From a virus (taxonomy: Duplodnaviria > Heunggongvirae > Uroviricota > Caudoviricetes), in the IMG/VR virus record IMGVR_UViG_2711768064_000002: a stretch of 35,802 bases of DNA; one strand, 5' to 3'. The position numbers were made by a program, and so were the translations under genes. The notes beneath the pieces are model-generated. The model was not told the origin of the DNA and ran no database searches. It saw nothing but the letters and a program-made list of their open reading frames with translations. Of this stretch, positions 3,110 through 27,470 are shown piece after piece. Within the stretch, counting starts at the first letter, position 1, and each line of letters starts with the position of its first letter.

Positions 3110-3367
3110 TTGTGCGGGGCTTCTTTTTGCCTGGAGAACGTCATGCATACAGTTTCCGAAAATCAGTGCGGTAAATACGCATTACTGCTGCAACAGGCCA
3201 GAACCGATGCACAGGCCGACGCAGCGACGCGCTTTTCTTCTCATCTTGACGCCATGATTCGCCACATCACAAAGGCGGAGTTATCCCGCGTGGAGATAGT
3301 CGAGCTGCTCAGTCAGGAGTCGGAAAAATTTCACAATATCGGATTGTCTCGCGGGGAGGTGCTTTGA
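3110..3367 (+). CDS. Early hypothetical protein (P2 orf80-like), 85 aa; alternative start at 3143
   Basis: ORF in early operon between B and A. Confidence 0.6.
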
Positions 3368-3669
3368 TGTCCTGTTCTCGTTCAGTTGTATTACTGAATA
3401 ACGCCTTAAAAATCACCGTTATGAAAAATGGCGATTTATCTCTTATTCAACTTGGTCTTGATAAAGAAAAACGCGAAATAACTGAGTCTGTTATCGCGAT
3501 TTATCAGAACGAATTAAATCTCCTGTCTGATGTGGTCAATTTACTTGTTAAACGCGCTGTATTTCACAAGCAAATCTCCTCCGTGGATGAACTGACGAAA
3601 TTAACGACAGAAATTGCCAGCTATTGCGCTGATGAATTTAAAAAACTTAACGACAAAAGGAGCTGGTAA
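3364..3669 (+). CDS. Early hypothetical protein (P2 orf81-like), 101 aa; alternative start at 3421
   Basis: ORF with overlapping stop/start coupling to neighbours. Confidence 0.6.
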
Positions 3670-3893
3670 TGCCGGACAACGTAGATTTTATTCAGGAACA
3701 ACAGGCTGAATTACTGGAGCGTCAGATTAACGCGGCAAGGGTAAAACATTGCGGTGCTTCTGCGCTGGTTTGCGAAGAGTGTGACGCGCCAATACCTGCT
3801 GCCCGTCGTGCGGCTTACCCGTCAGCCACGCGTTGTGTTTCCTGTCAGTCAGTCTTTGAAGCAAAAAACAAACATTACCGGAGAACGGCATGA
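3669..3893 (+). CDS. TraR/DksA-family C4 zinc-finger protein (P2 orf82-like), 74 aa
   Basis: CxxC...CxxC spacing (CGASALVCEECDAPI...RCVSCQ) typical of DksA/TraR zinc fingers. Confidence 0.7.
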   Translation: MPDNVDFIQEQQAELLERQINAARVKHCGASALVCEECDAPIPAARRAAYPSATRCVSCQSVFEAKNKHYRRTA

Positions 3894-4165
3894 GTATTCG
3901 TATTGAAATTGGCGAACGTTATGTCGTTACCAGTGACAGCTTTCAGTTTATTCTCCACGAGAAAAAGAGAGCGGAAAGCGGTAAAAACGCCGGTCAGGAA
4001 TGGCTGGCGGTGGTTGGTTATTACCCGAAATTAAGCCAGCTCGTTTCCGGCCTGATGCATCACGATATTCTGACCGGAAGCGCAAAGTCTTTTGCTGATT
4101 TAAACGCGCAGGTTGAGCAACTCAGCAAGCGTTGTTCAGAGGCTTTTGGCTCATATGGCCGTTAA
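3890..4165 (+). CDS. Early hypothetical protein (P2 orf83-like), 91 aa
   Basis: ORF directly upstream of and overlapping the A start. Confidence 0.6.
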   Translation: MSIRIEIGERYVVTSDSFQFILHEKKRAESGKNAGQEWLAVVGYYPKLSQLVSGLMHHDILTGSAKSFADLNAQVEQLSKRCSEAFGSYGR

Positions 4166-6431
4166 AGCCTCCGGGCGTTTTGTCCCTCCGTCAGCATTTG
4201 CCGCAGGCACCGGTAAGACGTTTACCGGTGCTTATGCATGGAACGCGCCACGCGAGGCTGTCGGGCGCGAAAGACCCCTTACACGTGACGAGATGCGTCA
4301 GGTGCAAGGTGTTTTATCCACGATTAATCGCCAGCCTTACTTTTTGCGCTCGCTGTTTACTTCACGCTATGACTACATCCGGCGCAATAAAAGCCCGGTG
4401 CACGGGTTTTATTTCCTCACATCCACTTTTCAGCGTCGTTTATGGCCGCGCATTGAGCGCGTTAATCAGCGCCATGAAATGAACACCGACGCGTCGTTGC
4501 TGTTTCTGGCAGAGCGTGACCACTATGCGCGCCTGCCTGGAATGAATGACAAGGAGCTGAAAAAGTTTGCCGCCCGTATCTCATCGCAGCTTTTCATAAT
4601 GTATGAGGAACTCTGCGATGCCTGGGTGGATGCGCATGGCGAGAAAGAATCGCTGTTTACGGATGAGGCGCAGGCTCACCTGTATGGTCATGTTGCTGGC
4701 GCTGCACGTGCTTTCAATATTTCCCCGCTCTACTGGAAAAAATACCGTAAAGGACAGATGACCACGAGGCAGGCATATTCTGCCATTGCCCGCCTGTTTA
4801 ACGATGAGTGGTGGACTCATCAGCTTAAAGGCCAGCGTATGCGCTGGCATGAGGCGTTACTGATTGCTGTCGGGGAGGTCAATAAAGACCGTTCTCCTTA
4901 TGCCAGTAAACATGCCATTCGTGATGTGCGTGCACGCCGCCAGGCAAATCTGGAATTTCTTAAATCGTGTGACCTTGAAAACAGGGAAACCGGCGAGCGC
5001 ATCGACCTTATCAGTAAGGTGATGGGCAGTATTTCTAATCCTGAAATTCGCCGGATGGAGCTGATGAACACCATTGCCGGTATTGAGCGTTACGCCGCAG
5101 CAGAGGGTGATGTGGGGATGTTTATCACGCTGACCGCGCCGTCAAAGTATCACCCGACACGTCAGGTCGGAAAAGGCGAAAGTAAAACCGTCCAGCTAAA
5201 TCACGGCTGGAACGATGAGGCATTTAATCCAAAGGATGCGCAGCGTTATCTCTGCCATATCTGGAGCCTGATGCGCACGGCATTCAAGGATAATGATTTA
5301 CAGGTCTACGGTTTGCGTGTCGTCGAGCCACACCACGACGGAACGCCGCACTGGCATATGATGCTTTTTTGTAATCCACGCCAGCGTAACCAGATTATTG
5401 AAATCATGCGTCGCTATGCGCTCAAAGAGGATGGCGACGAAAGAGGAGCCGCGCGAAACCGTTTTCAGGCAAAACACCTTAACCGGGGCGGTGCTGCGGG
5501 ATATATCGCGAAATACATCTCAAAAAACATCGACGGCTATGCACTGGATGGTCAGCTCGATAATGATACCGGTAGGCCGCTGAAAGACACAGCTGCGGCT
5601 GTTACCGCATGGGCGTCAACGTGGCGCATTCCGCAATTTAAAACGGTTGGTCTGCCGACAATGGGGGCTTACCGTGAACTACGCAAATTGCCTCGCGGCG
5701 TCAGCATTGCTGATGAGTTTGACGAGCGCGTCGAGGCTGCACGCGCCGCTGCAGACAGTGGTGATTTTGCGTTGTATATCAGCGCGCAGGGCGGGGCAAA
5801 TGTCCCGCGCGATTGTCAGACTGTCAGGGTCGCCCGTAGCCCGTCGGATGACGTTAACGAGTACGAGGAAGAAGTCGAGAGAGTGGTCGGCATTTACGCG
5901 CCGCATCTCGGCGCGCGTCATATTCATATCACCAGAACGACGGACTGGCGCATTGTTCCGAAAGTGCCGGTCGTTGAGCCTTTGACTTTAAAAAGCGGCA
6001 TCGCCGCGCCTCGGAGTCCTGTCAATAACTGTGGAAAGCTCACCGGTGGTGATACTTCGTTACCGGCTCCCACACCTTCTGAGCACGCCGCAGCCGTGCT
6101 TAATCTGGTTGATGACGGTGTTATCGAATGGAATGACCCGGAGGTCGTGAGGGCGCTCAGGGGCGCATTAAAACACGGCCTGAGAACACCAAACCGTCAG
6201 CAAAGAAACGGAAGCCCGTTAAAACCGAATGAAATAGCGCCATCGGCCAGGCTGACCCGGTCGGAGCGTATGCAAATTACCCGTATCCGCGTTGACCTTG
6301 CTCAGAACGGTATCAGGCCGCAGCGATGGGAGCTTGAGGCGCTGGCGCGTGGCGCGACCGTAAATTATTACGGGAAATCTTTCAATTATCAGGTCGCTGA
6401 TGAGTGGCCTGGATTTTTGTTACCCATTTGA
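4155..6431 (+). CDS. A: Replication initiator A (rolling-circle HUH endonuclease), about 758 aa; ORF opens at 4113
   Basis: Long ORF; HUH-type motif HHDGTPHWHMMLF and downstream GYIAKYISKNIDGY (catalytic Tyr region). Start at MAVKASGRF chosen from recalled P2 gpA N-terminus. Confidence 0.9.
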   Translation: MAVKASGRFVPPSAFAAGTGKTFTGAYAWNAPREAVGRERPLTRDEMRQVQGVLSTINRQPYFLRSLFTSRYDYIRRNKSPVHGFYFLTSTFQRRLWPRIERVNQRHEMNTDASLLFLAERDHYARLPGMNDKELKKFAARISSQLFIMYEELCDAWVDAHGEKESLFTDEAQAHLYGHVAGAARAFNISPLYWKKYRKGQMTTRQAYSAIARLFNDEWWTHQLKGQRMRWHEALLIAVGEVNKDRSPYASKHAIRDVRARRQANLEFLKSCDLENRETGERIDLISKVMGSISNPEIRRMELMNTIAGIERYAAAEGDVGMFITLTAPSKYHPTRQVGKGESKTVQLNHGWNDEAFNPKDAQRYLCHIWSLMRTAFKDNDLQVYGLRVVEPHHDGTPHWHMMLFCNPRQRNQIIEIMRRYALKEDGDERGAARNRFQAKHLNRGGAAGYIAKYISKNIDGYALDGQLDNDTGRPLKDTAAAVTAWASTWRIPQFKTVGLPTMGAYRELRKLPRGVSIADEFDERVEAARAAADSGDFALYISAQGGANVPRDCQTVRVARSPSDDVNEYEEEVERVVGIYAPHLGARHIHITRTTDWRIVPKVPVVEPLTLKSGIAAPRSPVNNCGKLTGGDTSLPAPTPSEHAAAVLNLVDDGVIEWNDPEVVRALRGALKHGLRTPNRQQRNGSPLKPNEIAPSARLTRSERMQITRIRVDLAQNGIRPQRWELEALARGATVNYYGKSFNYQVADEWPGFLLPI

Positions 6432-6690
6432 GTAAAAATGCAGCGTGATTTTATATGCCTTTGAATGGGTTATGCGAAGCGCCTCTAAGGCAGATGAGGA
6501 GCAATAGCATGCTGAAGTAGAAGGCTAAATTGTATTGAATCGCTAGCATGTAATTTAAAGCAGCTATTTGATTCGAGTCATAAAAGAGCATCTATTTCGG
6601 CTAATAAAACCATTGCGAGTGACCTTTTGTCGAAGCATAATTCATCTCGAGCGAAGTCTTGCTAGTCTTTCATCGGAATGATGACAGGCG

Positions 6691-6722
6691 CAAAAAAACC
6701 ACCCTGGCAGGTGGTTTTTTTG
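6691..6722. terminator. Bidirectional rho-independent terminator
   Basis: aaaaaaaccaccctggcaggtggttttttt: GC stem flanked by an A-run and a T-run, so it can terminate on either strand. Confidence 0.7.
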
Positions 6723-6733
6723 TTTGAAGCATA

Positions 6734-6847
6734 CTAAAGAATAATACTTACATGGATATTACTGACGTTTACTGACAAACCACTTGGACTACCATATGGA
6801 TAGCCAAAGAGGGCCAGAACGAGAATGCAGTAATAGCACTTCTTCAT
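6734..6847 (-). CDS. 37-aa hydrophobic small protein (MKKCYYCILVLALFGYPYGSPSGLSVNVSNIHVSIIL)
   Basis: Not in the ORF track (under 60 aa). Preceded by SD-like aggagg (rc of 6851..6856) and followed by the 6691..6722 terminator. Function unknown. Confidence 0.4.
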   Translation of the reverse strand: MKKCYYCILVLALFGYPYGSPSGLSVNVSNIHVSIIL

Positions 6848-7419
6848 ATCTCCTCCTGTAAGCAGAGGGCAATTTCCGCCGATATATGCGCTTCTAAGGC
6901 GGAGTTACTATTTAGCGAAGTCTTGCCCTGAAATAATGCTCTGTTTAAACGCAAAGTGATCTGGCATATCACCGAACAGAGAGCCTGAACAACACAACAT
7001 ATAGTATGTCGTTGTTTCTGGTTGCATTTTATGTTGTGTAATCCTGGTTTTGCATCAAGGATGTTTGAGCTTTTTTTGATATAGCTCAAAGTAAAAAGCA
7101 GAGACTACGGATGATAAGGTATTGAAAGCAATGTAAATTTTTTAAAGTTATTGGCGGCTAAAAAATGCACGGTTTCAATATGGTGGACTTAAATAAGCAA
7201 TTAAAAAAGTCATAAATATCACTAAAATCATGGTGTTACGTTTTTTTTGTGGGAGCTGCGGTGACGCTTAAGTTGATTTGTCATTAAATAAGCCGTGCAT
7301 GCAACAAGTGAATGTTTTTGCATGCGTCGGGGATGCCCGTTCCGGCTGCTTGCGGTCAGAGCTGGTGCGGATCCATAGTATCTATGCAACTGCATTAAAA
7401 CCGCCACATGAAGCGGGCG

Positions 7420-7438
7420 GGCGAGGCGGGGAAAGCAC
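7420..7438. other. cos cohesive-end site (GGCGAGGCGGGGAAAGCAC)
   Basis: Exact match to the 19-nt P2/186 cohesive-end sequence as I recall it; sits between A and Q as expected in the prophage. Confidence 0.8.
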
Positions 7439-7592
7439 TGCGCGCAAAATGTTCTTGAAATATTTGTGACATAAGCTAAGACACAAAATGATTGAAGGGC
7501 AGAGCAAATCCTACAGTCCTATGCTATTGTCTCATGTAATGCAGATAAGTTGAAAATTATCTTAAAATATAAGAGTAAAGACATTAAAAGGA

Positions 7593-9860
7593 TTGGTTAT
7601 GAATAATAACTCTAAGTTATTAAGCTCTATCTCGGTTGAATCTGATTTCGAGAACCTTATAAAACTATATGCAAATGAGTTATTTGGTGGTGAAACATAT
7701 CTGATCGGTGGTCCTTGGGATAATGGAAAGGATTTGGTAATAAAAAAGGGGAATAGAGAGTTAAAGCAAGCTGTACAAATATCTATTCAAGAGAAAAATA
7801 TTGAAAGTAAGATTGCTCAAGATATTAAAAAAGTGGCGAAATTGGTTGATGATCATTATTACCCGCCTGTATTATATTTTTTTTGGAGTCATTCAATATC
7901 TGAGCATTTATTGGATAAGATAAGAACAAATGCTCTTAAGGAAGATTTGATTAGATTGGAGTTTTATGATGCCAAACGGATCTCTCAAGATATTACAGAT
8001 AAATACCCAGGGTTATTGAATTACTTAATAAAAGATATACATAAGATAAGTTCTAATACTGAAGATGCAATTAACTTGCAACAAAGAGCATTTTATGAAT
8101 ATTTATTGTTAAGCAAAGATAGTGCTAATTTAAAAAATGAAATAATAAAAGCTAGTATTATGTCTAATTTATATGATGGCGGGAAGTCTGCTGATGATAT
8201 TCTAGAGAATCTAAAAGGTGTTAGTCTTACAAAACGTAGTTTACAGGGTAGACTGCAAAACCTAATTCATCAAAATAAAATTAGATTGAATGATGGTATA
8301 TATAGCCTGTCACCAGAGGAAATTAAAAAGCTTGAGAATATAAATCTCCGTGAAATTGTCAGAAAAGAAGAGTTGTTATCAGTAATAAATAATGAGTTGC
8401 CCAGAAATACAAGTAAGAATCTGGCTGTTCAAGTTGTTGATTTAATAATAAAGGCTTATGAAGAATCAATAAATGTCCAATTAACAGAAAGTAAATTTGA
8501 GCCTCCAAAATTACAGATATTCAAAACTATAGTACATAATTTAAAGGTGTTGATACGGCAGGAATATGATTTGGATGATGAGTCTTCGGATGCTTTAGCA
8601 AAAAAGCTAATGGAGTTGGCTGGTCAAAATGACTATTTATCCGAGCATTGCTCTGCTAAATTATGTGTGAATCTTTTAAGTGATCGGAAATTAGAGAAAT
8701 ATATTGAAAATAAAAATTTTTATATCTACTTTGATGCGCCTGTTCTTATTCCATATTTGATAACTCTTATGTTTGGAGATTTTGAGCTTTTTGATAAGTC
8801 GATTAAAAATATAAATTTACTGAGAGAGTGCATAAATCCCCTCAAAAATAAACATCTGAGAGTTTCTAATGAACATTTTGAAGAAACTGCAAGGCACTAC
8901 TCTGAAGCTGAAAAATTAAGTCAGTTTGTAACTGAAGATTTAATTAGTCAACTTGGTGAGTCGAAAAATGTATACTTTAATGTTTATATGCGGTGGAAAA
9001 ACAAACAGCCTAAACGTACAGATTTTTACGATTTTACTTATGCTTTTCTAGGGTTGGATAAAGATGATATTTATGCGGGGTATAAGCATGACACATTTGC
9101 GCAATGCATTCATAATTTACTAGCGTCAGCAAATATTGTTGTAATTGATAATAAAGACTCGGTGTCACAAGACTTTGTATTTAAAATAAAGCAAAAACTT
9201 AAAAGGGATTTGAATTCTTCACGTCCCGTTCGAGCCATAGAAAATGATGTTATATGTGCTGCAACTTTGAGTGATGAAACCCTACATCTTGATTCCAATG
9301 GTTACTTCAGTACTCCCATGCTAATAACACTTGATAGATCTCAATATCTATTGAGAAGCATAGTAAGAAATGAAAGGAGACATGCTGAATGGTTGGTTTA
9401 TACCCCTCAAAGAGCAATTGAACGTCTTTCCTTGGTGGGTTTAAAAATATCATCGGAATCGTTAAAGGATGGTGTTTTAGCAACCATATCAGAAGAATAT
9501 TTCTTTAAAGAAAGTTCCAGTAGTTTGATTGATACTTTGGCTATTATCATTGGAGATAATCAAGCAAGGCAAGGAGATGTTATTAGGCTTGCATCGCTTT
9601 TAAAAAGAAAGGTCAATGAGGAATCTATTGAGAATTCAGAAATTGATATTGAACACTATAATAACATTAGTTATGTGCTTCTTTTCATTCATCGTGAATT
9701 TAAATCTGAATTTTCAAATATAATAAAAATTTTTGCTGAGGATAGTAGGCGAGATAAACTGGTTGAAGTTTTGTTATCCACTATTCAAGGAGTTTTTGAT
9801 GAGAGTAAAAAGGAAATCTTGCGCTCAAATATAGGACGGTTGTTGGCTGAAATGGGATGA
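7593..9860 (+). CDS. Cargo protein of unknown function, 755 aa, AT-rich; possible N-terminal PD-(D/E)xK/Mrr-like nuclease fold
   Basis: Long uninterrupted ORF with Lys/Asn/Ile-rich composition unlike the GC-rich phage backbone. Motif weakly similar to Mrr-type nuclease cores: DNGKDLVIKKGNRELKQAVQISIQEK. Possible Rx4H at RNERRH. Confidence 0.85.
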   Translation: MVMNNNSKLLSSISVESDFENLIKLYANELFGGETYLIGGPWDNGKDLVIKKGNRELKQAVQISIQEKNIESKIAQDIKKVAKLVDDHYYPPVLYFFWSHSISEHLLDKIRTNALKEDLIRLEFYDAKRISQDITDKYPGLLNYLIKDIHKISSNTEDAINLQQRAFYEYLLLSKDSANLKNEIIKASIMSNLYDGGKSADDILENLKGVSLTKRSLQGRLQNLIHQNKIRLNDGIYSLSPEEIKKLENINLREIVRKEELLSVINNELPRNTSKNLAVQVVDLIIKAYEESINVQLTESKFEPPKLQIFKTIVHNLKVLIRQEYDLDDESSDALAKKLMELAGQNDYLSEHCSAKLCVNLLSDRKLEKYIENKNFYIYFDAPVLIPYLITLMFGDFELFDKSIKNINLLRECINPLKNKHLRVSNEHFEETARHYSEAEKLSQFVTEDLISQLGESKNVYFNVYMRWKNKQPKRTDFYDFTYAFLGLDKDDIYAGYKHDTFAQCIHNLLASANIVVIDNKDSVSQDFVFKIKQKLKRDLNSSRPVRAIENDVICAATLSDETLHLDSNGYFSTPMLITLDRSQYLLRSIVRNERRHAEWLVYTPQRAIERLSLVGLKISSESLKDGVLATISEEYFFKESSSSLIDTLAIIIGDNQARQGDVIRLASLLKRKVNEESIENSEIDIEHYNNISYVLLFIHREFKSEFSNIIKIFAEDSRRDKLVEVLLSTIQGVFDESKKEILRSNIGRLLAEMG

Positions 9861-9875
9861 TTTCTTGGTTATTGA

Positions 9876-9910
9876 ACGGCACTATGGTCGTTGCTTATAG
9901 TGCCGTTTTA
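9876..9910. terminator. Stem-loop terminator between cargo gene and Q 3' end
   Basis: aacggcactat..atagtgccgtt 11-bp stem followed by tttt; lies between convergent genes. Confidence 0.65.
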
Positions 9911-9951
9911 AGGTGTCGTGCCATTATGAATGGCATATCCGAGTTTATATA

Positions 9952-10986
9952 TTAGGTATCGCAAGTATCTAGTGAGTAGTTTTTAAAGCGGATGACCTCC
10001 TGACCGAGCCAGCCGTTTATCTCGCGGATCCTGTCCTGTAACGGGATAAGCTCATTGCGGACAAAGACCTTTGCCACTTTCTCAATATCGCCCAGTGACC
10101 CGACGTTCTCCGGCTTGCCGCCCATCAACTGAAAGGGGATGCGGTGCGCGTCCAGTAGGTCAGCGGCGCTGGCTTTTTTGATATTAAAAAAATCGTCCTT
10201 CGTTGCGACTTCACTGAGCGGGATAATTTTAATGCCGTCGGCTTTCCCCTGTGGGGCATAGAGAAACAGATTTTTAAAGTTGTTGCGGCCTTTCGACTTC
10301 ACCATGTTTTCGCGGAGCATTTCGATATCGTTGCGATCCTGCACGGCATCAGTGACGTACATGATGTATCCGGCATGTGCGCCGTTTTCGTAATACTTGC
10401 GGCGGAACAGCGTGGCCGACTCATTCAGCCAGGCAGAGTTAAGGGCGCTGAGATATTCCGGCAGGCCGTACAACTCCTGATTAATATCCGGCTCCAGCAG
10501 GTGAAACACGGAGCCGGGCGCGAAGGCTGTCGGTTCGTTGAAGGACGGCACCCACCAGTAAACATCCTCTTCCACCCCACGGCGGGTATATTTTGCCGGT
10601 GAGGTTTCCAGTCTGATGACCTTACCGGTGGTGCTGTAACGCTTTTCCAGAAACGCATTACCGAACACCAGAAAATCCAGCACAAAGCGGCTGAAATCCT
10701 GTTGTGAAAGCCACGGATGCGGGATAAATGTCGAGGCCAGAATATTACGTTTGACGTAAATCGGTGAGCTGTGATGTACGGCAGCACGCAGGCTTTTTGC
10801 CAGACCGGTAAAGCTGACCGGTGGCTCATACCATCTGCCGTTACTGATGCACTCGACGTAATCCAGAATGTCACGGCGGTCGAGTACCGGCACCGGCTCA
10901 CCAAAGGTGAATGCCTCCATTTTCGGGGCGCTGGCGGTGATTGTTTTTGCCGCAGGTTGCGGTGTTTTCCCTTTTTTCTTGCTCAT
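9952..10986 (-). CDS. Q: Portal protein Q, 344 aa
   Basis: Size identical to P2 Q; leftward late operon next to cos; start overlaps P stop. Confidence 0.92.
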   Translation of the reverse strand: MSKKKGKTPQPAAKTITASAPKMEAFTFGEPVPVLDRRDILDYVECISNGRWYEPPVSFTGLAKSLRAAVHHSSPIYVKRNILASTFIPHPWLSQQDFSRFVLDFLVFGNAFLEKRYSTTGKVIRLETSPAKYTRRGVEEDVYWWVPSFNEPTAFAPGSVFHLLEPDINQELYGLPEYLSALNSAWLNESATLFRRKYYENGAHAGYIMYVTDAVQDRNDIEMLRENMVKSKGRNNFKNLFLYAPQGKADGIKIIPLSEVATKDDFFNIKKASAADLLDAHRIPFQLMGGKPENVGSLGDIEKVAKVFVRNELIPLQDRIREINGWLGQEVIRFKNYSLDTCDT

Positions 10987-12758
10987 CAGTAAAACTCCAG
11001 AATGGTGGATGTCAGCGGGGTGCTGATACCGGCGGTGAGTGGCTCATTTAACAGGGCGTGCATGGTCGCCCAGGCGAGGTCGGCGTGGCTGGCTTCCTCG
11101 CTGCGGCTGGCCTCATAGGTGGCGCTGCGTCCGCTGCTGGTCATGGTCTTGCGGATAGCCATAAACGAGCTGGTGATGTCGGTGGCGCTGACGTCGTATT
11201 CCAGACAGCCACGGCGGATAACGTCTTTTGCCTTGAGCACCATTGCGGTTTTCATTTCCGGCGTGTAGCGGATGTCGCGCGCGGCAGGATAGAACGAGCG
11301 CACGAGCTGGAACACGCCGACACCGAGGCCGGTGGCATCAATACCGATGTATTCGACGTTGTATTTTTCGGTGAGTTTGCGGATGGATTCCGCCTGGGTG
11401 GCAAAGTCCATGCCTTTCCACTGGTGACGCTCAAGTATTCTGAATTTGCCACCGGCAACCACCGGCGGTGCCAGTACCACGCATCCGGCGCTGTCGCCAC
11501 GGTGTGACGGGTCGTAACCAATCCAGACCGGGCGTGAGCCGAACGGATTGGCGGCAAACGGCGCATAGTCTTCCCATTCTTCCAGCGTGTCGACCATGCA
11601 GCGTTGCAACTCCTCGAACGGGAACACCGACGCCTTGTCGTCAACAAATTCACACATGAACAGGTTTTTAAAATCGTCGGCGCTGTTTTCGCGTTTGAGC
11701 TGCTCAATGTCGAACAGCGTGCAGCCGCCTTTCAGGGCGTCCTCAATGGTGACAATCTGCCGCCACTGGCCGTCCGCACAGAGAAGACCTCCGGCAAGTG
11801 CGTTATGACTGACGTCGATTTCCACGCGTTCAGCGGCGCTGGCGCGTCCCCGGTTAAACAGTTCACCCGACCAGAACGGGTAGGCGTCGTGCGCCAGCGT
11901 GGACGGGGTGGAGAAATAGGTCGAACGCAGGTGACTCTGTGAGGCCATACCTGATGCCACCTTACGCAGTACCTGAAAATTCGGGATCCAGAAAATCTCG
12001 TCGACGTACAGGTCGCCGTTATGGCTCTGCGCGGTGTTGGAGTTGGTGCCGAGAAAAATCAGTTTTGCGCCGTTATTGCCCAGGACAATTGGGTCACCGG
12101 TCAGGTCAACGTCAACCAGACGGGCAAAGGCGATGATGTATTCGCGGAACACATACGCCTGCGTTTTACTGGCCGACAGAAAAATCTGGTTATGGCCGGT
12201 TTTCAGGGCGCGCAGCAGCGCCTCGCGGGAAAAATAAAACGTTGCGCCAATCTGGCGGGATTTCAGGATATCGCGGATGCGGTGCTCAAGCCCGGCGCGA
12301 TACCAGTGCAACTGATATTCGAAAGACTGCTCAAAGAAAATCTGCTCCAGCTTTTCGATGGCTTCGTCGCTGAAAAAATTCTTTTTCGGTTTGCGGCGCC
12401 CGCCTTTGTTGCGGTTAGCGACGTTCGGATTAAGGTCTGCCTCGTTGCCGGTCTGACTGTAGCGGTTGACCCGCGCCAGCCGTTCAATCTGGCGTCCCAG
12501 CAGGTCAATTTCCTTGAAGTCACCGCCGGTTTTCTGCGGTTTGATGATGAGCTGGGTCAGCCGCGCTTCCAGACTCATTTCGACACGGCTGATGGGGGCA
12601 ACGCTGTCCCAGCCGTCGCGCTGTTTCCAGCTCTGCACCGTCGGGCGTTTCATCTGCAACATGGCGGCAATCTGCGGCACGGAAAACCCCTGCCAGTACA
12701 GCAGCGCCGCCTGACGACGCGGGTCGTGTAAAAGAGTGGTGTCTGTGGTGATGGTCAT
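10986..12758 (-). CDS. P: Terminase large subunit P (ATPase), 590 aa; ORF extends to 12788
   Basis: Start at MTITTDTTLLHDPRR gives 590 aa as in P2 P; Walker-like ATPase context; translationally coupled to Q. Confidence 0.92.
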   Translation of the reverse strand: MTITTDTTLLHDPRRQAALLYWQGFSVPQIAAMLQMKRPTVQSWKQRDGWDSVAPISRVEMSLEARLTQLIIKPQKTGGDFKEIDLLGRQIERLARVNRYSQTGNEADLNPNVANRNKGGRRKPKKNFFSDEAIEKLEQIFFEQSFEYQLHWYRAGLEHRIRDILKSRQIGATFYFSREALLRALKTGHNQIFLSASKTQAYVFREYIIAFARLVDVDLTGDPIVLGNNGAKLIFLGTNSNTAQSHNGDLYVDEIFWIPNFQVLRKVASGMASQSHLRSTYFSTPSTLAHDAYPFWSGELFNRGRASAAERVEIDVSHNALAGGLLCADGQWRQIVTIEDALKGGCTLFDIEQLKRENSADDFKNLFMCEFVDDKASVFPFEELQRCMVDTLEEWEDYAPFAANPFGSRPVWIGYDPSHRGDSAGCVVLAPPVVAGGKFRILERHQWKGMDFATQAESIRKLTEKYNVEYIGIDATGLGVGVFQLVRSFYPAARDIRYTPEMKTAMVLKAKDVIRRGCLEYDVSATDITSSFMAIRKTMTSSGRSATYEASRSEEASHADLAWATMHALLNEPLTAGISTPLTSTILEFY

Positions 12759-18687: not shown

Positions 18688-19132
18688 GTTTAAGCGTTTT
18701 GAAGACCGGCTGACCGGACTGATTGAGTCGCTGTCACCGTCAGGGCGTCGGCGACTGAGTGCCGAACTGGCGAAACGTCTGCGGCAGAGTCAGCAGCGTC
18801 GGGTGATGGCTCAGAAAGCCCCGGACGGCACACCCTACGCGCCACGCCAGCAGCAGAGCGCCAGAAAAAAGACTGGTCGTGTTAAGCGAAAAATGTTTGC
18901 GAAACTTATCACCAGTCGTTTTTTGCATATCCGCGCCAGCCCGGAACAGGCATCAATGGAGTTTTACGGCGGGAAGTCGCCGAAAATTGCCAGTGTGCAT
19001 CAGTTCGGTCTGTCGGAAGAAAACCGAAAAGACGGTAAGAAAATTGATTATCCGGCGCGTCCTCTGCTCGGCTTTACCGGTGAGGATGTGCAGATGATTG
19101 AAGAGATTATCCTGGCTCACCTGAATCGTTAG
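18680..19132 (+). CDS. S: Tail completion protein S, 150 aa
   Basis: Size and position as P2 S. Confidence 0.88.
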   Translation: MNEFKRFEDRLTGLIESLSPSGRRRLSAELAKRLRQSQQRRVMAQKAPDGTPYAPRQQQSARKKTGRVKRKMFAKLITSRFLHIRASPEQASMEFYGGKSPKIASVHQFGLSEENRKDGKKIDYPARPLLGFTGEDVQMIEEIILAHLNR

Positions 19133-19207
19133 CTTTAATCATCTGAGAATATAAGATAGAAATCAATTGATTAGCATAATTTATTTTGAATTTTAATGTT
19201 AATAAAT

Positions 19208-19232
19208 AAAAGGCCAGTTATTGGCCTTTTAT
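19208..19232. terminator. Bidirectional rho-independent terminator
   Basis: aaaaggccagttattggcctttt: stem ggcca/tggcc flanked by A- and T-runs, between convergent S and the antisense cargo gene. Confidence 0.7.
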
Positions 19233-19234
19233 CA

Positions 19235-20308
19235 TTACTTTCCATTTTTTAATGAATTGATTAACGATGCTATTTGCTCAATGCCATCAAATGTAGATGG
19301 TATCTTATCATCGGATAGCATGATGTTTGAAAATACTACGTCTTCGAATTTTGAAAGCGCTTCCGGATTGTTTTTCCTTATCTCTGAGGAATAGTCGCTA
19401 TAACTCTGAATGAACTGACAAAGGCTCTTTCTGAGTTCTATTTGCATAATCTGAGTTCGTAACGATATATGATTTAGCAGTACAACTCTAAAGTAATACA
19501 TGAAAATCAATGTAACTGATGCAAAAGGTAGTGCTGACATAAAATATGTGGCAGCATTTGTCGTTTCGAGAGTTGGTAATTTATGCATTCCATAGTATAT
19601 CAGCGGGGAGGGAATGATTATAGCCAAGATGATAAGAATTATTCTTGATAGCATGATTTCACTTTCTTTCTTTTTGCCAAGTGAATTAAAGCCTTCAAAC
19701 AATCCAACAAAATTAAATGCGACCTCATACCCTTTTAATGACTCTTTAATTGACTCTATTTTGGCATGTTGCTCCTTTAAGAAGGAGTCGCACTTTTCGA
19801 AAAATTGACGCCCTTCGTTTAAACTATCAATGTATTTTTTATATGTGTCAACATTGCTGGAGCTTAAAACTTCTTTAACCATTGCTAATGGCAGTTCTCT
19901 AAGAGAAAAGTCTATCTGTGCTCTGCTCCGCTCATCGAATTCATTATAGTTATACAGAGCAAAATCCTTGATGGTTCTTAGTGGTGAAAAGTGAGACTCT
20001 ATTTCCGGAGAGAGAATGCTTGGTTCAATGATAAATCTAAAAAAGCAAGTAAATATAAGGTTGATGCTGTTGTTATCTTCTCCCTTCTCTCTTAAGAAAC
20101 TTTTAAAGGTGTCGCCAATCATAGCAATGTTGTACTGGGATTTTTTGTCCCAATCTTCAGGGTTTTCGGAAATGAAGTTTATTGCTTGAGCAATTATTTT
20201 GTTTCTGTTTGATTCAAAGTTTGTGCTGGGAGTCAGCGTGTTCAAAAAGACCAGATAATCTTTGAACAATTCTTTCATTGTTTCTGACGAGAAAAAGTAA
20301 GTACTCAT
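19235..20308 (-). CDS. AT-rich cargo membrane protein with two predicted TM helices, about 357 aa; ORF opens at 20404 (389 aa)
   Basis: Soluble N-terminal region then hydrophobic helices IMLSRIILIILAIIIPSPLIYYGM and FMSALPFASVTLIFMYYFRVVLL. Start at MSTYFF (20308) preferred because the 20404 start overlaps the V start. Confidence 0.8.
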   Translation of the reverse strand: MSTYFFSSETMKELFKDYLVFLNTLTPSTNFESNRNKIIAQAINFISENPEDWDKKSQYNIAMIGDTFKSFLREKGEDNNSINLIFTCFFRFIIEPSILSPEIESHFSPLRTIKDFALYNYNEFDERSRAQIDFSLRELPLAMVKEVLSSSNVDTYKKYIDSLNEGRQFFEKCDSFLKEQHAKIESIKESLKGYEVAFNFVGLFEGFNSLGKKKESEIMLSRIILIILAIIIPSPLIYYGMHKLPTLETTNAATYFMSALPFASVTLIFMYYFRVVLLNHISLRTQIMQIELRKSLCQFIQSYSDYSSEIRKNNPEALSKFEDVVFSNIMLSDDKIPSTFDGIEQIASLINSLKNGK

Positions 20309-20394
20309 AATGGATTTTGTTGTCCCTTGTTGTTCTGTGCACCAGAAATCATGGTGTGATTTACTTCGAGATAGTACAGAATCATTATTATCGA
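20309..20394. promoter_or_regulatory. Late promoter region upstream of V (PV); likely also holds the cargo gene promoter
   Basis: Intergenic between divergent cargo gene and V; TGT-rich element ttgttgtcccttgttgttctgtgcacc. Inferred from P2 organisation. Confidence 0.45.
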
Positions 20395-21024
20395 ATGAAT
20401 GCACAATACAATGAAATTCTTCGCTTTATACGCAATATGATTCGCACTGGCATTATCGTCGAAACCGACCTTAATGCCGGTCGCTGCCGTGTGCAGACCG
20501 GCGGCATGTGCACCGACTGGCTTCAGTGGCTGACCCATCGCGCCGGGCGTTCGCGCACATGGTGGGCACCTTCCGTGGGGGAACAGGTGCTGATTCTGGC
20601 CGTGGGTGGTGAACTCGACACGGCGTTCGTTCTGCCGGGGATTTATTCCGGCGATAACCCCGCGCCGTCTGCGTCGGCGGATGCCCTGCATATCCGTTTC
20701 CCTGACGGGGCGGTGATTGAATATGAACCCGAAACCAGTGCACTCATGGTAAGCGGAATTAAAACGGCCAGCGTGACGGCTTCTGATTCTGTTACTGCCA
20801 CGGTGCCGGTGGTCATGGTGAAAGCATCAACCCGCATCACCCTGGACACACCGGAGGTGGTCTGCACCAACAGGCTGATTACCGGCACGCTGGAAGTGCA
20901 GAAGGGCGGGACGATGCGCGGCAACATTGAACACACCGGCGGTGAACTCTCATCAAACGGTAAGGTACTGCATACCCATAAACACCCCGGCGACAGCGGC
21001 GGCACAACCGGGAGTCCTCTATGA
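20395..21024 (+). CDS. V: Baseplate spike/assembly protein V, about 209 aa; ORF opens at 20317
   Basis: NMIRTGIIVETDLNAGRCRVQTGGMCTDWLQWL recognised as P2 V. Confidence 0.9.
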   Translation: MNAQYNEILRFIRNMIRTGIIVETDLNAGRCRVQTGGMCTDWLQWLTHRAGRSRTWWAPSVGEQVLILAVGGELDTAFVLPGIYSGDNPAPSASADALHIRFPDGAVIEYEPETSALMVSGIKTASVTASDSVTATVPVVMVKASTRITLDTPEVVCTNRLITGTLEVQKGGTMRGNIEHTGGELSSNGKVLHTHKHPGDSGGTTGSPL

Positions 21025-22814: not shown

Positions 22815-24860
22815 ATGAGCACAAAATTCAAAACCGTTATCACCACTGCCGGTGCAGCAAAGCTGGCAGCGGCAACCGCACCGGGAGGGCGGAAGGTCAA
22901 CATTACCACGATGGCCGTCGGGGATGGCGGTGGTAAATTGCCTGTCCCGGATGCCGGACAGACCGGGCTTATCCACGAAGTCTGGCGACATGCGCTGAAC
23001 AAAATCAGCCAGGACAAACGAAACAGTAATTATATTATCGCAGAGCTGGTTATTCCGCCGGAGGTGGGCGGCTTCTGGATGCGTGAGCTTGGCCTGTACG
23101 ATGATGCGGGAACGTTAATTGCCGTGGCGAACATGGCCGAAAGTTATAAGCCAGCTCTTGCCGAAGGCTCAGGGCGTTCGCAGACCTGTCGCATGGTCAT
23201 CATCGTCAGCAGTGTGGCCTCAGTGGAGCTGACCATTGACACCACAACGGTGATGGCGACGCAGGATTACGTTGATGACAAAATTGCAGAGCATGAACAG
23301 TCACGACGTCACCCGGACGCCTCGCTGACCGCAAAAGGTTTTACTCAGTTAAGCAATGCGACCAACAGCACGTCTGAAACACTGGCCGCAACGCCGAAAG
23401 CGGTTAAGGCCGCATATGACCTTGCTAACGAGAAATATACCGCACAGGACGCTACCACAGCGCGAAAAGGTCTTGTCCAGCTAAGTAGTGCGACCAACAG
23501 CATGTCTGAAACGCTCGCCGCAACACCAAAAGCCGTTAAGACGGTAATGGATGAAACGAACAAGAAAGCGCCATTAAACAGCCCTGCACTGACCGGAACG
23601 CCAACGACGCCAACTGCGCGACAGGGAACGAATAATACTCAGATCGCAAACACGGCTTTCGTTATGGCCGCGATTGCCGCCCTTGTAGACTCGTCGCCTG
23701 ACGCACTGAATACGCTGAACGAGCTGGCGGCGGCGCTGGGCAATGACCCGAATTTTGCTACCACCATGACTAATGCGCTTGCGGGTAAGCAACCGAAAGA
23801 TGCCACTTTGACGGCGCTGGCGGGGCTTGCTACTGCGGCAGACAGGTTTCCGTATTTTACGGGGAATGATGTTGCCAGCCTGGCGACCCTGACAAAAGTC
23901 GGGCGGGATATTCTGGCTAAATCGACCGTTGCCGCCGTTATCGAATATCTCGGTTTACAGGAAACGGTAAACAGGGCCGGGAACGCCGTGCAAAAAAATG
24001 GCGATACCTTGTCCGGCGGGCTTACTTTTGAAAACGACTCAATCCTTGCCTGGATTCGAAATACTGACTGGGCAAAGATTGGATTTAAAAATGATGCCGA
24101 CAGCGATACTGATTCATATATGTGGTTTGAAACAGGTGACAACGGCAATGAATATTTCAAATGGAGAAGTCGCCAGAGCACCACAACAAAAGACCTGATG
24201 AATCTTAAATGGGATGCTCTGTATGTTCTTGTTAAAGCCCTTTTCAGTAGTGAAGTAAAAATATCTACAGTCAATGCGCTGAGGATATTTAATTCATCTT
24301 TTGGTGCTATTTTTCGCCGTTCTGAAGAAAACCTGTATATCATTCCTACACGAGAAAATGAGGGTGAAAATGGAGATATTGGGCCATTAAGGCCATTCGG
24401 CATCAACTTAAGAACAGGAGTTGTGTCTGTTGGTAATGGTGCCAGGATTGATGGCGGGCTGGCACTTGGCACGAATAACGCGTTGGGTGGGAACTCTATT
24501 GTTCTTGGTGATAACGACACCGGATTTAAACAAAATGGCGATGGTAATCTGGATGTTTATGCTAATAACGTCCATGTTATGCGCTTTGTTTCCGGAAGCA
24601 TTCAAAGTAATAAGACCATAAATATTACGGGGCGTGTTAATCCCTCGGATTACGGTAACTTTGATTCCCGCTATGTGAGAGATATCAGACTTGGCACACG
24701 TGTTGTCCAGACCATGCAGAAAGGGGTGATGTATGAGAAAGCAGGGCACGTAATTACCGGGCTTGGTATTGTCGGTGAAGTCGATGGTGATGACCCCGCA
24801 GTATTCAGGCCAATACAAAAATACATCAATGGCACATGGTATAACGTCGCACAGGTGTAA
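22815..24860 (+). CDS. H: Tail fiber protein H, 681 aa
   Basis: Conserved N-terminus, internal repeats, AT-richer C-terminal region; position between I and G. Confidence 0.9.
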   Translation: MSTKFKTVITTAGAAKLAAATAPGGRKVNITTMAVGDGGGKLPVPDAGQTGLIHEVWRHALNKISQDKRNSNYIIAELVIPPEVGGFWMRELGLYDDAGTLIAVANMAESYKPALAEGSGRSQTCRMVIIVSSVASVELTIDTTTVMATQDYVDDKIAEHEQSRRHPDASLTAKGFTQLSNATNSTSETLAATPKAVKAAYDLANEKYTAQDATTARKGLVQLSSATNSMSETLAATPKAVKTVMDETNKKAPLNSPALTGTPTTPTARQGTNNTQIANTAFVMAAIAALVDSSPDALNTLNELAAALGNDPNFATTMTNALAGKQPKDATLTALAGLATAADRFPYFTGNDVASLATLTKVGRDILAKSTVAAVIEYLGLQETVNRAGNAVQKNGDTLSGGLTFENDSILAWIRNTDWAKIGFKNDADSDTDSYMWFETGDNGNEYFKWRSRQSTTTKDLMNLKWDALYVLVKALFSSEVKISTVNALRIFNSSFGAIFRRSEENLYIIPTRENEGENGDIGPLRPFGINLRTGVVSVGNGARIDGGLALGTNNALGGNSIVLGDNDTGFKQNGDGNLDVYANNVHVMRFVSGSIQSNKTINITGRVNPSDYGNFDSRYVRDIRLGTRVVQTMQKGVMYEKAGHVITGLGIVGEVDGDDPAVFRPIQKYINGTWYNVAQV

Positions 24861-24863
24861 TTT

Positions 24864-25391
24864 ATGCAGCATTTAAAAAATATTACTGCGGGTAATCCAA
24901 AAACTGTTGCCCAATATCAACTGACAAAAAATTTTGATGTTATCTGGTTATGGTCCGAAGAGGGAAAAAACTGGTATGAGGAAGTAAGTAATTTTCAGGA
25001 AGACACGATAAAGATTGTTTACGACGAGAATAATATAATTTTCGGCATCACCAGAGATGCTTCAACGCTTAACCCTGAAGGTTTCAGCGTTGTCGAGGTT
25101 CCTGATATTACCTCCAACCGACGTGCTGATGACTCAGGTAAATGGATGTTTAAGGATGGTGCCGTGATTAAGCGGATTTATACGGCAGATGAACAGGAGC
25201 AACAGGCAGAATCACAAAAGGCAGCTTTACTTTCCGAAGCTGAATCCGTGATTTTGCCGCTGGAACGCGCTGTCAGGCTGAATATGGCGACGGATGAGGA
25301 ACGCAGCCGACTGGAAGCATGGGAACGCTACAGCGTTCTGGTCAGTCGTGTGGATCCTGCAAATCCCGAATGGCCGGAAATGCCGCAATAA
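24864..25391 (+). CDS. G: Tail fiber assembly chaperone G, 175 aa
   Basis: Follows H; size as P2 G. Confidence 0.88.
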
Positions 25392-25668
25392 GTTGTATGA
25401 TCTCTGGTGTGAGCTTACATATCTATAGCACAGAGTAAAGCCTAATCTGACAGTCCGCTATGTGCCAATAGCAGACATCCACACAATTATGTAAAATAGG
25501 CTAGTGAGTCAGCATTCATGTAGTTCAGATCATCTATAGCTGAAATCACGATCGCTTAACAGTGATTCACTCATAACTGCTAGCGAGCAATGTTCTTGTT
25601 TGAACCTCAAGTTGAAACCACAAAATCGAAAGGTTAAATAATCGATTATCCAAATAGAAGGCAATTCA

Positions 25669-27108
25669 ATGGGAAATCACGATTTTATTAAATATATTAT
25701 ATTATTTGGCTTGTCTGGGATAATGTTGGCTATGCTAGTGCTCTTTATTTCCTCTGTAGCATATTATTTTTTCACCCATAATAAAGGAGTTCTTCAGTAT
25801 ATAATTAAAACTATTTCCATAGGCCTTGTAACTATTCCAGTCGCAATAATACTAATCGTTGCACTCGTCCATTATGTTGTCTGGCAAAAAGGGATTTCAA
25901 CGGCATGGCGTTTTATATTCCACTCGACTAAAACAACAACCGTGAATGATATTGCTAATGCTGAATCAGAAGATGTTATTGTTCACCTTGTTCATGGAAC
26001 ATTCGAGACGAATGCATCTTGGACACAACCTGAGTCAAAAATGTGCAAATCAATTAACTCAAGGAATCCCAATATTGGTATATCTCGATTTAAATGGGAT
26101 GGCAAAAACTCTGCATCCTCTCGTAAACAAGCGGCATATCAATTAGGAATGCATATTGATAACTCTCCTGCAAAATACAATTATATTATTGCACATAGCC
26201 ATGGGGCAGCTATTGTAAGAGAAATGTCTTATTTACGAAGTGATATTGCAAAAAAAATTCAAGGCGTATGTCTTTTGTCACCACCGTTCATCTTTCGACG
26301 TAGGATAAAAAGAACGTCAGGTGCTTTAATTAATCTTATTGATATTAGCGGAACTTTGGCCATTCAATTGTTACTTGCAGTATTTTTTGTACCTTTGAAT
26401 CTATATAATATTAATTATGCAGCAGTAATTTTTTTTGTTTCAATATTTGCAGAAATTATAATCTCCAAAAAATATAAAAAAGAATTTTTGCAGGAAGTTG
26501 AGAGTGGCGAGCACTGTGAAGCGGTTGATTTTAGGAATGTTGAAATTTATCACGCAATTGGTGATGAAGCCGATTCAGGCCTAAGATTTGTAAGTTCACT
26601 TCACGAAGGATGTTTTGCAATTCTTTCCCAGCTAAAAAAAGCTCAAGTAAGTCATAAAAAGCTAACACATTGGTCAGCAGTTTTAAGCTACCTATTTTAT
26701 ATTTCCATGAGTGTATTAATATGGTTCTTCTATCCTGAAGAAAAATCATGGATTATAGTATTATTAGTAAGCTTTGTATTAACTTCTATTTCTCACATTT
26801 GGCAAAGGTTGAAACCATCAAAGGATGTTCCTCATGTTTTACTTATTGCAGCAATACCAGTTGCGATTTTTTCATTTTGGTTGGCTGTAGCTAAGGCCAT
26901 AGCTTATGGAGATTTGCGATTAATATTTTGCCCGGAAGTTTTTATTGCATCATCTGAAACTCCAGCTGGAGATCATAAAGTTATTAAATTTGCTCCACAG
27001 AATGATGGTATATTAATACACTCAACACACTCGCATCCGGAGGCTATAATTAATGTTTCTGAATGGTTATATTGCTCTGAGAATAAAAGGGTAAATGGTG
27101 AATCATAG
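25669..27108 (+). CDS. AT-rich cargo polytopic membrane protein with serine-hydrolase-like motifs, 479 aa
   Basis: N-terminal TM helices, then VIVHLVHGTFE (HG oxyanion-like) and IIAHSHGAAIV (GxSxG-like elbow), further TM segments, C-terminal ILIHSTHSH. Occupies the Z/fun position between G and FI. Confidence 0.85.
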   Translation: MGNHDFIKYIILFGLSGIMLAMLVLFISSVAYYFFTHNKGVLQYIIKTISIGLVTIPVAIILIVALVHYVVWQKGISTAWRFIFHSTKTTTVNDIANAESEDVIVHLVHGTFETNASWTQPESKMCKSINSRNPNIGISRFKWDGKNSASSRKQAAYQLGMHIDNSPAKYNYIIAHSHGAAIVREMSYLRSDIAKKIQGVCLLSPPFIFRRRIKRTSGALINLIDISGTLAIQLLLAVFFVPLNLYNINYAAVIFFVSIFAEIIISKKYKKEFLQEVESGEHCEAVDFRNVEIYHAIGDEADSGLRFVSSLHEGCFAILSQLKKAQVSHKKLTHWSAVLSYLFYISMSVLIWFFYPEEKSWIIVLLVSFVLTSISHIWQRLKPSKDVPHVLLIAAIPVAIFSFWLAVAKAIAYGDLRLIFCPEVFIASSETPAGDHKVIKFAPQNDGILIHSTHSHPEAIINVSEWLYCSENKRVNGES

Positions 27109-27441
27109 ATTAATATAACCACCATAAATTAATTTGTAATATACTTCCCTGCTAAATTCGCAGGGGAGTATAAAAATATACTAGCTCAGTGGAGTCTTGT
27201 GCTGAGTTAGTACATGTTAACAAGATATTTATTCACCACTAAATAATTAGCTAGAACAATAAGAATAATTTTGGGCAGTAAAGACAGGATGTAAACTACA
27301 CTTATTCCAGTATGTTGGTTATCGTAGTTATATATGATGAGCTCTAAAGTCCGCTTCTCGCTCAAAGCAGACTGTCAGATTTGATAGCGTTTTGGCTATG
27401 TAAATTGTCAGTCGGGAAATAAGTGAGTACAAATCATGACA

Positions 27442-27470
27442 GGCGGGCGGATTGTCCGCCTTTTCTTTAT
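27442..27470 (+). terminator. Rho-independent terminator downstream of cargo gene
   Basis: ggcgga-ttg-tccgcc hairpin followed by ttttcttt. Confidence 0.6.

Follow-up and report, generated by a model that had tools for sequence, protein, structure and literature searches.

The window considered here is a stretch of 35,802 nucleotides from a tailed virus of the Caudoviricetes (IMG/VR record IMGVR_UViG_2711768064_000002), in which a single gene (25669..27108, + strand) is carried, within a P2-like prophage, between the tail genes G and FI. Its 479-aa product is predicted to be a membrane-integrated alpha/beta-hydrolase, and the prediction of a catalytically competent Ser/Asp/His enzyme is well supported by conservation and by the modelled structure. 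In this model two bundles of transmembrane (TM) helices are inserted inside the hydrolase fold, an architecture that appears unprecedented. A defence role is plausible from the sequence and its surroundings, and the gene is regarded as a candidate: taken as a whole, the product is read, with slightly less than even confidence, as a single-gene anti-phage effector in the form of a lipid hydrolase built into the membrane. The known part of this reading is a defence-hotspot cargo with a hydrolase effector, and the new part is the membrane-inserted architecture, which is without a characterised relative.

Catalytic core and membrane architecture

The open reading frame (ORF) runs from an ATG start to a TAG stop codon and is preceded, at a distance of 7 nt, by the Shine-Dalgarno sequence AGAAGG (25656-25661). 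At the composition of the ORF a stop would be expected every ~14 codons, and the probability of 479 stop-free codons has been determined as 1.8e-16. Together with 58 clusters of full-length homologues and with substitutions between copies of the surrounding cassette that fall mostly at third codon positions (51/18/106 and 57/32/107), this excludes a chance ORF. The ORF is a genuine gene subject to purifying selection, and the other small ORFs within 25669-27108 have been dismissed as antisense or out-of-frame artefacts. An AT-rich ORF in the G-FI slot had been described in a sequence-only reading of the window, and its coordinates, strand, length and low GC content have all been verified, the GC content being 0.30-0.37 over ~25450-27400, an island with 34% GC, and 0.52-0.59 in the flanks. 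The RefSeq label for the identical gene in E. coli TB06052 is 'hypothetical protein'.

Among 30 relatives, down to 32% identity, the blocks HLVHGTF, AHSHG, GDEAD, SETP and HSTHS are invariant, as are the key residues of the motif DVIVHLVHGTFE (residues 101-112) and of IIAHSHGA (residues 173-180). A profile search of 1.84 billion representatives has returned 5,446 relatives at E<=1e-3, 44 of them at E<=1e-30, and in an alignment of superfamily depth, made of 37 distant relatives (19-26% identity) and the subfamily (42 sequences in total, 19-47% identity), the invariant positions are H109-G110-T111 (25993-26001, + strand like all coding features given here), H176-S177-H178 (26194-26202, with the serine codon AGC at 26197-26199), D299-E300, H451 and a few structural residues. 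In the AlphaFold2 (AF2) model (predicted local distance difference test 85.8, predicted template-modelling score 0.81) these sets sit in turn after strands 103-108, 170-176, 291-296 and 437-441, and the resulting order of oxyanion residues, nucleophile, acid and base is the canonical one. H109-G110 follows strand 103-108, the elbow A175-H176-S177-H178-G179 comes directly after strand 170-176, D299 is placed after strand 291-296, and H451 is found past strand 437-441 and before the last helix. The predicted triad has been assigned to S177, D299 (codon 26563-26565) and H451 (codon 27019-27021), because these residues are invariant at superfamily depth, unlike D302 and H454, which are not conserved there and have been rejected as catalytic residues. 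The model has a central parallel sheet flanked by helices, a nucleophile elbow after beta5, the Ser-acid-His order and oxyanion residues after beta3, as is characteristic for alpha/beta-hydrolases. The motifs VIVHLVHG and AHSHG, which had been likened to those of alpha/beta-hydrolases in the sequence-only reading, are indeed the invariant oxyanion (HG) and nucleophile-elbow motifs, and the canonical triad is completed by the invariant D299 and H451; fold and triad have both been found, and no identity to a characterised protein has turned up.

The predicted core is encoded in three parts. Its N-terminal half (residues 101-217, 25969..26319) contains strands 103-108, 136-141, 170-176 and 197-203, the middle part (residues 291-333, 26539..26667) comprises strand beta7, the invariant G298-D299-E300-A301 and the soluble part of a long helix, and the C-terminal part (residues 414-475, 26908..27093) holds the invariant SETP at 429-432, strands 424-429 and 437-441 and the final helix 457-475. 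By profile comparison the HG and AHSHG motifs are aligned to the solved hydrolases 6tj2 (E=7.7e-4) and RavL (7x2p), and in Foldseek the best local matches comprise cutinase and minimal lipases, with 20-22% identity to B. subtilis LipA. The elbow has the pentapeptide A-H-S-x-G, as in minimal Bacillus-type lipases. No curated Pfam or NCBIfam model is matched by the query at its gathering score (Ser_hydrolase 19.0 bits with a cut-off of 22, Hydrolase_4 14.3 with 27, BchO 13.7 with 172), and BchO (E=0.024) is the only match in the NCBIfam scan. The sub-threshold alpha/beta-hydrolase matches to Ser_hydrolase (E=1.4e-3), Hydrolase_4 and BchO concur, being centred on residues 92-231, and among the relatives P0038 (26.5), P0079 (28.7) and P0085 (27.9) lie above the Abhydrolase_6 cut-off of 26.3, and P0069 passes both DUF900 and DUF676.

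Hydrophobic helices at the N-terminus, in the middle and in the C-terminal half of the protein had likewise been noticed at the outset, and hydropathy, model and charge distribution agree on a polytopic membrane protein. The hydrophobic segments determined by hydropathy are 10-32, 45-70, 222-243, 248-266, 335-355, 359-379 and 389-411. The first two form an N-terminal hairpin, TM1-TM2 (residues 10-70, 25696..25878; AF2 helices 2-36 and 38-83), of which TM1 is subfamily-specific and missing from most distant relatives, and the trans-side loop of this hairpin holds the near-invariant H37 and G40. A second hairpin, TM3-TM4 (residues 222-267, 26332..26469), is inserted past strand beta6 according to hydropathy and model, a position that in the canonical fold topology of alpha/beta-hydrolases is the site of the lid or cap. 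The second internal insertion (residues 335-413, 26671..26907) is placed after the Asp loop and comprises TM5, TM6 and helix H7 (389-413). The hydrophobicity of both internal insertions in 86-95% of distant superfamily members marks them as ancestral, and in the canonical fold topology both would project from the sheet at its catalytic edge. Family-wide, loops on the hydrolase side carry 3.3-4.8 lysine and arginine residues compared with 0.2-1.4 on the trans side, the TM3-TM4 loop being poor and its flanks rich in these residues, and this asymmetry places the membrane-integrated enzyme, by the positive-inside rule, on the predicted cytoplasmic face.

Helix 389-413 (26833-26907) is uniformly hydrophobic (mean hydrophobicity 0.71, hydrophobic moment 0.18), ancestral to the superfamily and conserved like the catalytic core, with a value of 0.72 compared with 0.39-0.56 in the other six hydrophobic helices. 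The next core strand follows after only ~10 residues, which precludes a full membrane crossing; the helix may instead be monotopic or act as a buried substrate gate.

No structural match to the whole architecture has been found by Foldseek in the PDB, where the query-normalised TM-score (template-modelling score) stays at <=0.25, or among the predicted viral structures of BFVD. Minimal lipases and esterases such as Lip_vut1 (6nkc), LipA (1i6w), RavL (7x2p) and the cutinases are small, soluble or secreted proteins of ~180-250 aa, whereas the 479-aa protein has ~230 extra TM or hydrophobic residues, located at the N-terminus, after beta6 and after beta7, and reaches a best query TM-score of 0.25 with them. 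Membrane-bound alpha/beta-hydrolases that act on membrane lipids are represented by PGAP1/Bst1, the eukaryotic glycosylphosphatidylinositol inositol-deacylase, and by Pseudomonas PlaF, both of which have their N- or C-terminal TM segments external to the catalytic fold. Like these, the 479-aa protein has an alpha/beta-hydrolase domain tethered to or embedded in the membrane, and distant relatives give weak PGAP1 Pfam matches below threshold, but its two TM bundles are located inside the fold.

Cassette structure and replacement of Z/fun

Upstream of the gene lie the tail-fibre gene H (22815-24860) and the tail-fibre assembly gene G (24864-25391; Caudo_TAP, E=7e-35), and downstream follows the tail-sheath gene FI, whose true start has been located by alignment to P2 at 27566 and not at the TTG at 27452. 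According to alignments to P2 and to the Z-region record AJ512681, the cargo is positioned between G and FI within the Z-region inverted repeats, and all 24 E. coli contigs that were read carry the gene in this slot. In P2 the slot is occupied by Z/fun, which excludes phage T5. The Fun product is a protein of 299 aa without a Pfam domain, and no similarity between it and the 479-aa protein is detected by BLASTP (E=0.55 over 65 residues), so that homology has been rejected. The question whether the gene corresponds to P2 Z/fun or to a replacement, left open in the sequence-only reading, is answered by this comparison: the gene is a replacement of Z/fun and not its homologue, sharing with it the identical slot, the same inverted-repeat junctions and the character of an AT-rich single-gene cargo.

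The fun locus has been described as the 'second defence-enriched locus' of P2, with three validated systems, fun being the previously identified defence gene of the P2 reference genome itself (Vassallo et al. 2022, PMC9519451), and the other P2 hotspot, gpA-gpQ, has been analysed by Rousset et al. 2022. The slot of P2's own defence gene could also be held by a protein of non-lethal superinfection exclusion, which would functionally replace Fun by blocking DNA entry or an early membrane step and for which hydrolysis would be accessory or would serve local lipid modification. Such a role would be in line with a polytopic protein of the inner membrane whose trans-side loop is conserved (H37, G40) and whose single gene has no partner. 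The catalytic residues, however, are invariant superfamily-wide, which argues that catalysis is central. Known superinfection-exclusion proteins are small and non-enzymatic, and we consider exclusion of this kind very unlikely.

The borders of the cassette are sharply defined, as the alignment to the P2 backbone (P2/P2-EC48) breaks off at ~25467-25476 and restarts at ~27349-27351. At the left junction (25444..25476) the core of the P2 'left inverted repeat', AATCTGACAGTC (25444-25455; a feature annotated in AJ512681), overlaps the palindrome GTCCGCTATGTGCCAATAGCAGAC (25453-25476), and at the right junction (27349..27381; both junctions are unstranded features) the palindrome GTCCGCTTCTCGCTCAAAGCAGAC (27349-27372) overlaps the core of the P2 'right inverted repeat', GACTGTCAGATT (27370-27381). 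Both ends thus carry an imperfect 24-bp palindrome of the form GTCCGC-N12-GC(A/G)GAC. The same type of palindrome is present on both borders of a Klebsiella copy that resides in a non-P2 island (locus L024, ~4743-4766 and ~6681-6704), and remnants of it are seen at the cassette ends in a Pectobacterium integrative and conjugative element (ICE) and in a Proteus island. The border palindrome may be a recombination site for the exchange of cargo between hotspots of different mobile elements.

DNA homology to the copies in other genera spans the same 1.9-kb unit each time, with 96.8% identity over 1,921 bp in the Klebsiella michiganensis island (window 25452-27372), 84.7% over 1,899 bp in the Pectobacterium ICE (25464-27361) and 84.3% over 1,874 bp in the Proteus mirabilis island (25451-27317), and a 99%-identical copy is found on the Salmonella IncFIB plasmid CP053577.1. 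In every host compared, the GC content of the gene is below the local one. Of the AT-rich intergenic DNA that had been thought to flank the gene as its own, only the part within 25453-27372 belongs to the cargo, the remainder being conserved P2 backbone. Carriers amount to 6 of 100,044 species-representative genomes, six loci being too few for a formal enrichment statistic. The best reading of the cargo is that of a horizontally mobile 'moron' in the gap between two tail operons.

Three observations have been made beside copies of the cassette. Before the cargo island starts, the GC content is already lowered to 0.39-0.45 at 24000-25400, i.e., in G and the C-terminal third of the tail fibre H, which suggests a host-range module of fibre tip and chaperone that is exchanged separately. 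In E. coli TB06052, which holds the sole near-identical copy of the prophage in a complete genome (locus L001), the sheath gene FI beside the cassette is annotated as frameshifted (8167-9164), and this prophage may be defective while its cargo stays intact. On the Salmonella plasmid (locus L032), a gene pair for a PAPS reductase and a protein with a ParB N-terminal domain lies ~1.8 kb downstream of the copy (10213-12086) and is suspected to be defence-related.

Within the cassette, the coding sequence is preceded by a 5' leader or regulatory region (25477..25668, + strand) with the elements TTGAAA (25612-25617) and AATAAT (25637-25642), separated by N19. They form a candidate sigma-70 promoter, weakly assigned by eye; the -10 element AATAAT is replaced by CATAAT in two other cassettes, and no strong + strand promoter 5' of the ORF has been returned by a consensus promoter scan. 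The non-coding leader of ~190 bp is conserved like coding sequence (0.81-0.98 identity in four cassettes from four genera), no Rfam match has been found in it, and no covariation is apparent (RNAalifold term -0.31; 1 compensatory pair out of 50), four sequences being uninformative in this respect. The leader may serve as an operator, a leader RNA or a promoter. A hairpin, CTTCCCTGC-TAAATTC-GCAGGGGAG (27144..27168, + strand), is located 36 nt past the stop codon and is kept in all four cassettes, the surrounding 3' DNA drifting (0.54-0.79). It lacks a T-tract and hence has not been called by the terminator scan, in which the sole strong terminator (27441-27461) is one of the P2 backbone; the hairpin is probably a transcript end or stabiliser. 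A hidden partner gene has been sought in a hydrophobic 52-aa minus-strand ORF (27207-27365) and discarded, as this ORF is not conserved and contains stops in the cassettes L012 and L014. The cassette consists of one gene without a partner.

The conservation of leader and hairpin, together with the presence of the gene on plasmids, ICE and prophages, would be in line with an addiction or toxin module that stabilises its carrier elements, in which a membrane-damaging hydrolase would be restrained by a small RNA or peptide encoded in cis in the flanks. Against it stand the lack of a conserved second ORF, of an Rfam family and of covariation in the leader, as well as the occurrence of the gene alone in chromosomes, and such a module is scarcely to be expected.

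Genomic contexts and proposed function

In a survey of 18 distinct contexts, a small sample without formal background control, 6 of the homologues abut defence systems identified by PADLOC or Pfam, 3 occupy moron slots of prophages, 4 belong to other mobile or conflict-related surroundings and 5 are solitary. The prophage slots are the P2 G-FI position itself, a position upstream of V-W-J-I-H in a P2-like viral contig (L027), which is taken by a 72%-identical copy, and the integrase-proximal end of a non-P2, Proteus-type prophage. The defence neighbours comprise Gabija in Pectobacterium (GajA 3e-210, GajB 4e-140), a Gabija-like pair recognised by Pfam domains only in Curvibacter, a cyclic-oligonucleotide-based anti-phage signalling system (CBASS) in Proteus (2TM effector 1e-81, cyclase 1e-136), a type 8 defence-associated reverse transcriptase (DRT) in Klebsiella (2e-151), a type I restriction-modification (R-M) operon beside a metagenomic member of 33% identity, and HsdR with the candidates PDC-S35 TIR and PDC-S28 in a B. 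pseudomallei island. The other mobile or conflict-related contexts are a K. michiganensis region with integrase and umuDC, a Dickeya island that is bounded by an integrase and encodes a 1,635-aa NACHT STAND NTPase, the Salmonella IncFIB plasmid, and Chromobacterium piscinae (L016), where the 38%-identical homologue (7001-8452) follows on the same strand 120 bp behind the gene of a 1,313-aa CHAT protease (2939-6880, E=4e-7), an arrangement seen in this single context. This recurrent placement beside defence systems is suggestive.

The five solitary chromosomal insertions (Kluyvera, two Paraburkholderia, Erwinia and Rahnella) bear no marks of defence or mobile elements and would suit a membrane esterase of the lysogenic-conversion or housekeeping type without any defence role. 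Constitutive remodelling of lipids of the envelope or of lipid-linked intermediates by it, e.g., by deacylation, would alter host physiology, stress tolerance or virulence. Such an enzyme would be in keeping with the superfamily of 5,446 representatives, which is mostly environmental, shows no evident link to defence and carries generic labels only, e.g., 'pimeloyl-ACP methyl ester carboxylesterase' or 'esterase/lipase family', and also with the cytolethal distending toxin and the partition systems that P2 hotspots are known to hold (Rousset et al. 2022). The subfamily, however, is very patchy, with 6 species in 100,044, the cassette moves among prophages, ICE, islands and a plasmid, and the repeated neighbours Gabija, CBASS, DRT, R-M and TIR form the pattern that is used for defence-gene prediction; a non-defensive esterase is considered unlikely.

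Two further AT-rich islands have been noticed in the window. The one at ~7000-10000 (30-36% GC) contains a 755-aa ORF (7593-9860, + strand) without a Pfam or PADLOC match, which appears to lie at the gpA-gpQ (old/tin) defence hotspot and is another candidate defence cargo. The other, at ~19000-20000 (35% GC), contains a 389-aa ORF (19235-20404, - strand) between the tail-completion genes and the baseplate gene V, for which no Pfam or PADLOC match has been found; the same slot holds a frameshifted hypothetical gene in E. coli TB06052 and the 72%-identical hydrolase homologue in the P2-like phage L027.

That the hydrolase protects the lysogen from other phages is regarded as somewhat more probable than not, in view of the hotspot, the mobility of the cassette, its patchy distribution and its defence neighbours. 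The sequence-only reading had suggested an effector of abortive infection or exclusion, and this suggestion is strengthened by the genomic context and by the standing of the fun locus as a defence hotspot (Vassallo et al. 2022, PMC9519451). A lipid of the inner leaflet as the substrate and an abortive outcome, to which the lipase-like core, the pentapeptide and the intramembrane lid point, are considered less probable than not. In the proposed course of events the protein would be expressed in the lysogen from its own promoter and would be kept latent by the intramembrane 'lid'; when another phage infects, it would hydrolyse ester bonds in inner-leaflet lipids, as a phospholipase or esterase, and the membrane would collapse, with the infection being aborted or excluded. 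The catalytic domain would reside on the cytoplasmic side, with three pairs of TM helices and one conserved hydrophobic helix projecting from its catalytic face, and candidates for the elements of latency and triggering would be helix 389-413 and the N-terminal hairpin with its trans-side H37/G40 loop. A trigger by membrane sensing is speculative. One may go further and postulate, although we consider it rather unlikely, an immune device of one polypeptide, in which TM helices would replace the lid and the bilayer would gate the active site, so that sensing and killing would be combined in one protein. DNA entry, depolarisation, or holins and other phage membrane proteins would then shift the helix bundle, to which helix 389-413 and the N-terminal hairpin belong, and this shift would expose inner-leaflet phospholipids to Ser177.

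Several points weigh against the anti-phage lipid hydrolase. Besides the solitary insertions, the cassette is rare, being present in 2 of the 584 complete E. coli genomes in which the flanking P2 locus is found. No match to a defence model has been found in PADLOC-DB v2.0.0 beyond Cas6 noise (E=0.037, 11 bits), PHROGs returns only a holin model (E=0.059 over a TM stretch) that reflects compositional noise, and in 50,697 deposited phage genomes DNA matches are limited to the flanks and no tblastn match is obtained. A membrane phospholipase requires tight control, yet no regulator, partner gene or trigger has been found, and helix 389-413 is at odds with a simple topology. In addition, the fold alone cannot separate a lipase from an esterase, thioesterase or peptidase, and the sub-threshold Pfam matches include the S33 aminopeptidase family. 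These last points would leave room for a defence or exclusion protein that acts on protein or acyl-protein as a membrane-anchored serine peptidase or thioesterase, for which Lit, a protease that cleaves EF-Tu, is the model. Since lipases and cutinases rank first among the structural neighbours, the pentapeptide is of the lipase type, and the TM helices in place of the lid suggest access from the bilayer, a protein substrate is considered distinctly unlikely.

Relation to known effectors and significance

In the literature that could be searched, by accession and by keywords on the hotspot and the hydrolase, no paper on this hydrolase family has been found, and the closest comparisons are with effectors of other fold or composition. 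A precedent for an effector that destroys membranes is CapV, the patatin-like phospholipase of CBASS (PMC12480259). The proposed logic is alike, a serine lipid hydrolase ruining the inner membrane to abort infection, but CapV is built on a patatin fold with a Ser-Asp dyad, remains soluble before a cyclic nucleotide activates it and shares its operon with a CD-NTase gene, whereas the 479-aa protein has a predicted canonical triad with an invariant His, would be permanently integrated into the membrane, has no cyclase in its cassette and gives no PADLOC effector match. An alpha/beta-hydrolase with a role in antiviral defence is LcHydrolase, a zymogen and latent death effector that is activated by a protease, supposedly by rearrangement of its lid region, and whose substrate has been left undefined in the paper (Evans et al. 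2025, PMC12642450). It shares the fold, and the Chromobacterium homologue behind the CHAT protease recalls such modules of protease and hydrolase. Judged by its description, LcHydrolase differs in being soluble, of ~33 kDa (8.1+4.7+19.8 kDa) and dependent on a caspase-like partner protease, the 479-aa protein being polytopic; among the 18 contexts only that in Chromobacterium has an adjacent gene for a caspase- or trypsin-like protease, and the window has none. Rst_Hydrolase-3TM, from the P4 hotspot, combines a HAD-like hydrolase with a separate transmembrane protein (Rousset et al. 2022) and resembles the present case as a hydrolase with TM segments, carried as cargo of a phage or satellite hotspot and presumed to act by abortive infection. 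An identity with this system has been rejected, as the fold is that of an alpha/beta-hydrolase and not HAD, the gene is single and not one of two, and the hotspot is that of P2 and not P4.

If the anti-phage reading is true, the palindrome-bounded 1.9-kb cassette, found in a prophage, an ICE, islands and a plasmid of five genera, would provide a clear case for the study of defence-cargo exchange between hotspots. The hydrolase would then represent a new single-gene anti-phage family, represented neither in PADLOC nor in PHROGs annotation nor in the deposited phage genomes searched, and this family would stem from the fun locus, the second and less studied of the P2 hotspots. As membrane-associated defences are poorly understood, it would offer a compact and tractable model for the latency and triggering of a membrane-embedded enzyme, and the superfamily of 5,446 cluster representatives with TM helices inside the alpha/beta-hydrolase fold would obtain its first functional assignment. 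Should the bilayer indeed gate the active site, this superfamily would be a structurally unprecedented one, comprising over 5,000 clusters of lipid hydrolases gated within the membrane. Even if the gene is not defensive, its product would still represent a well-defined and novel membrane-enzyme architecture.

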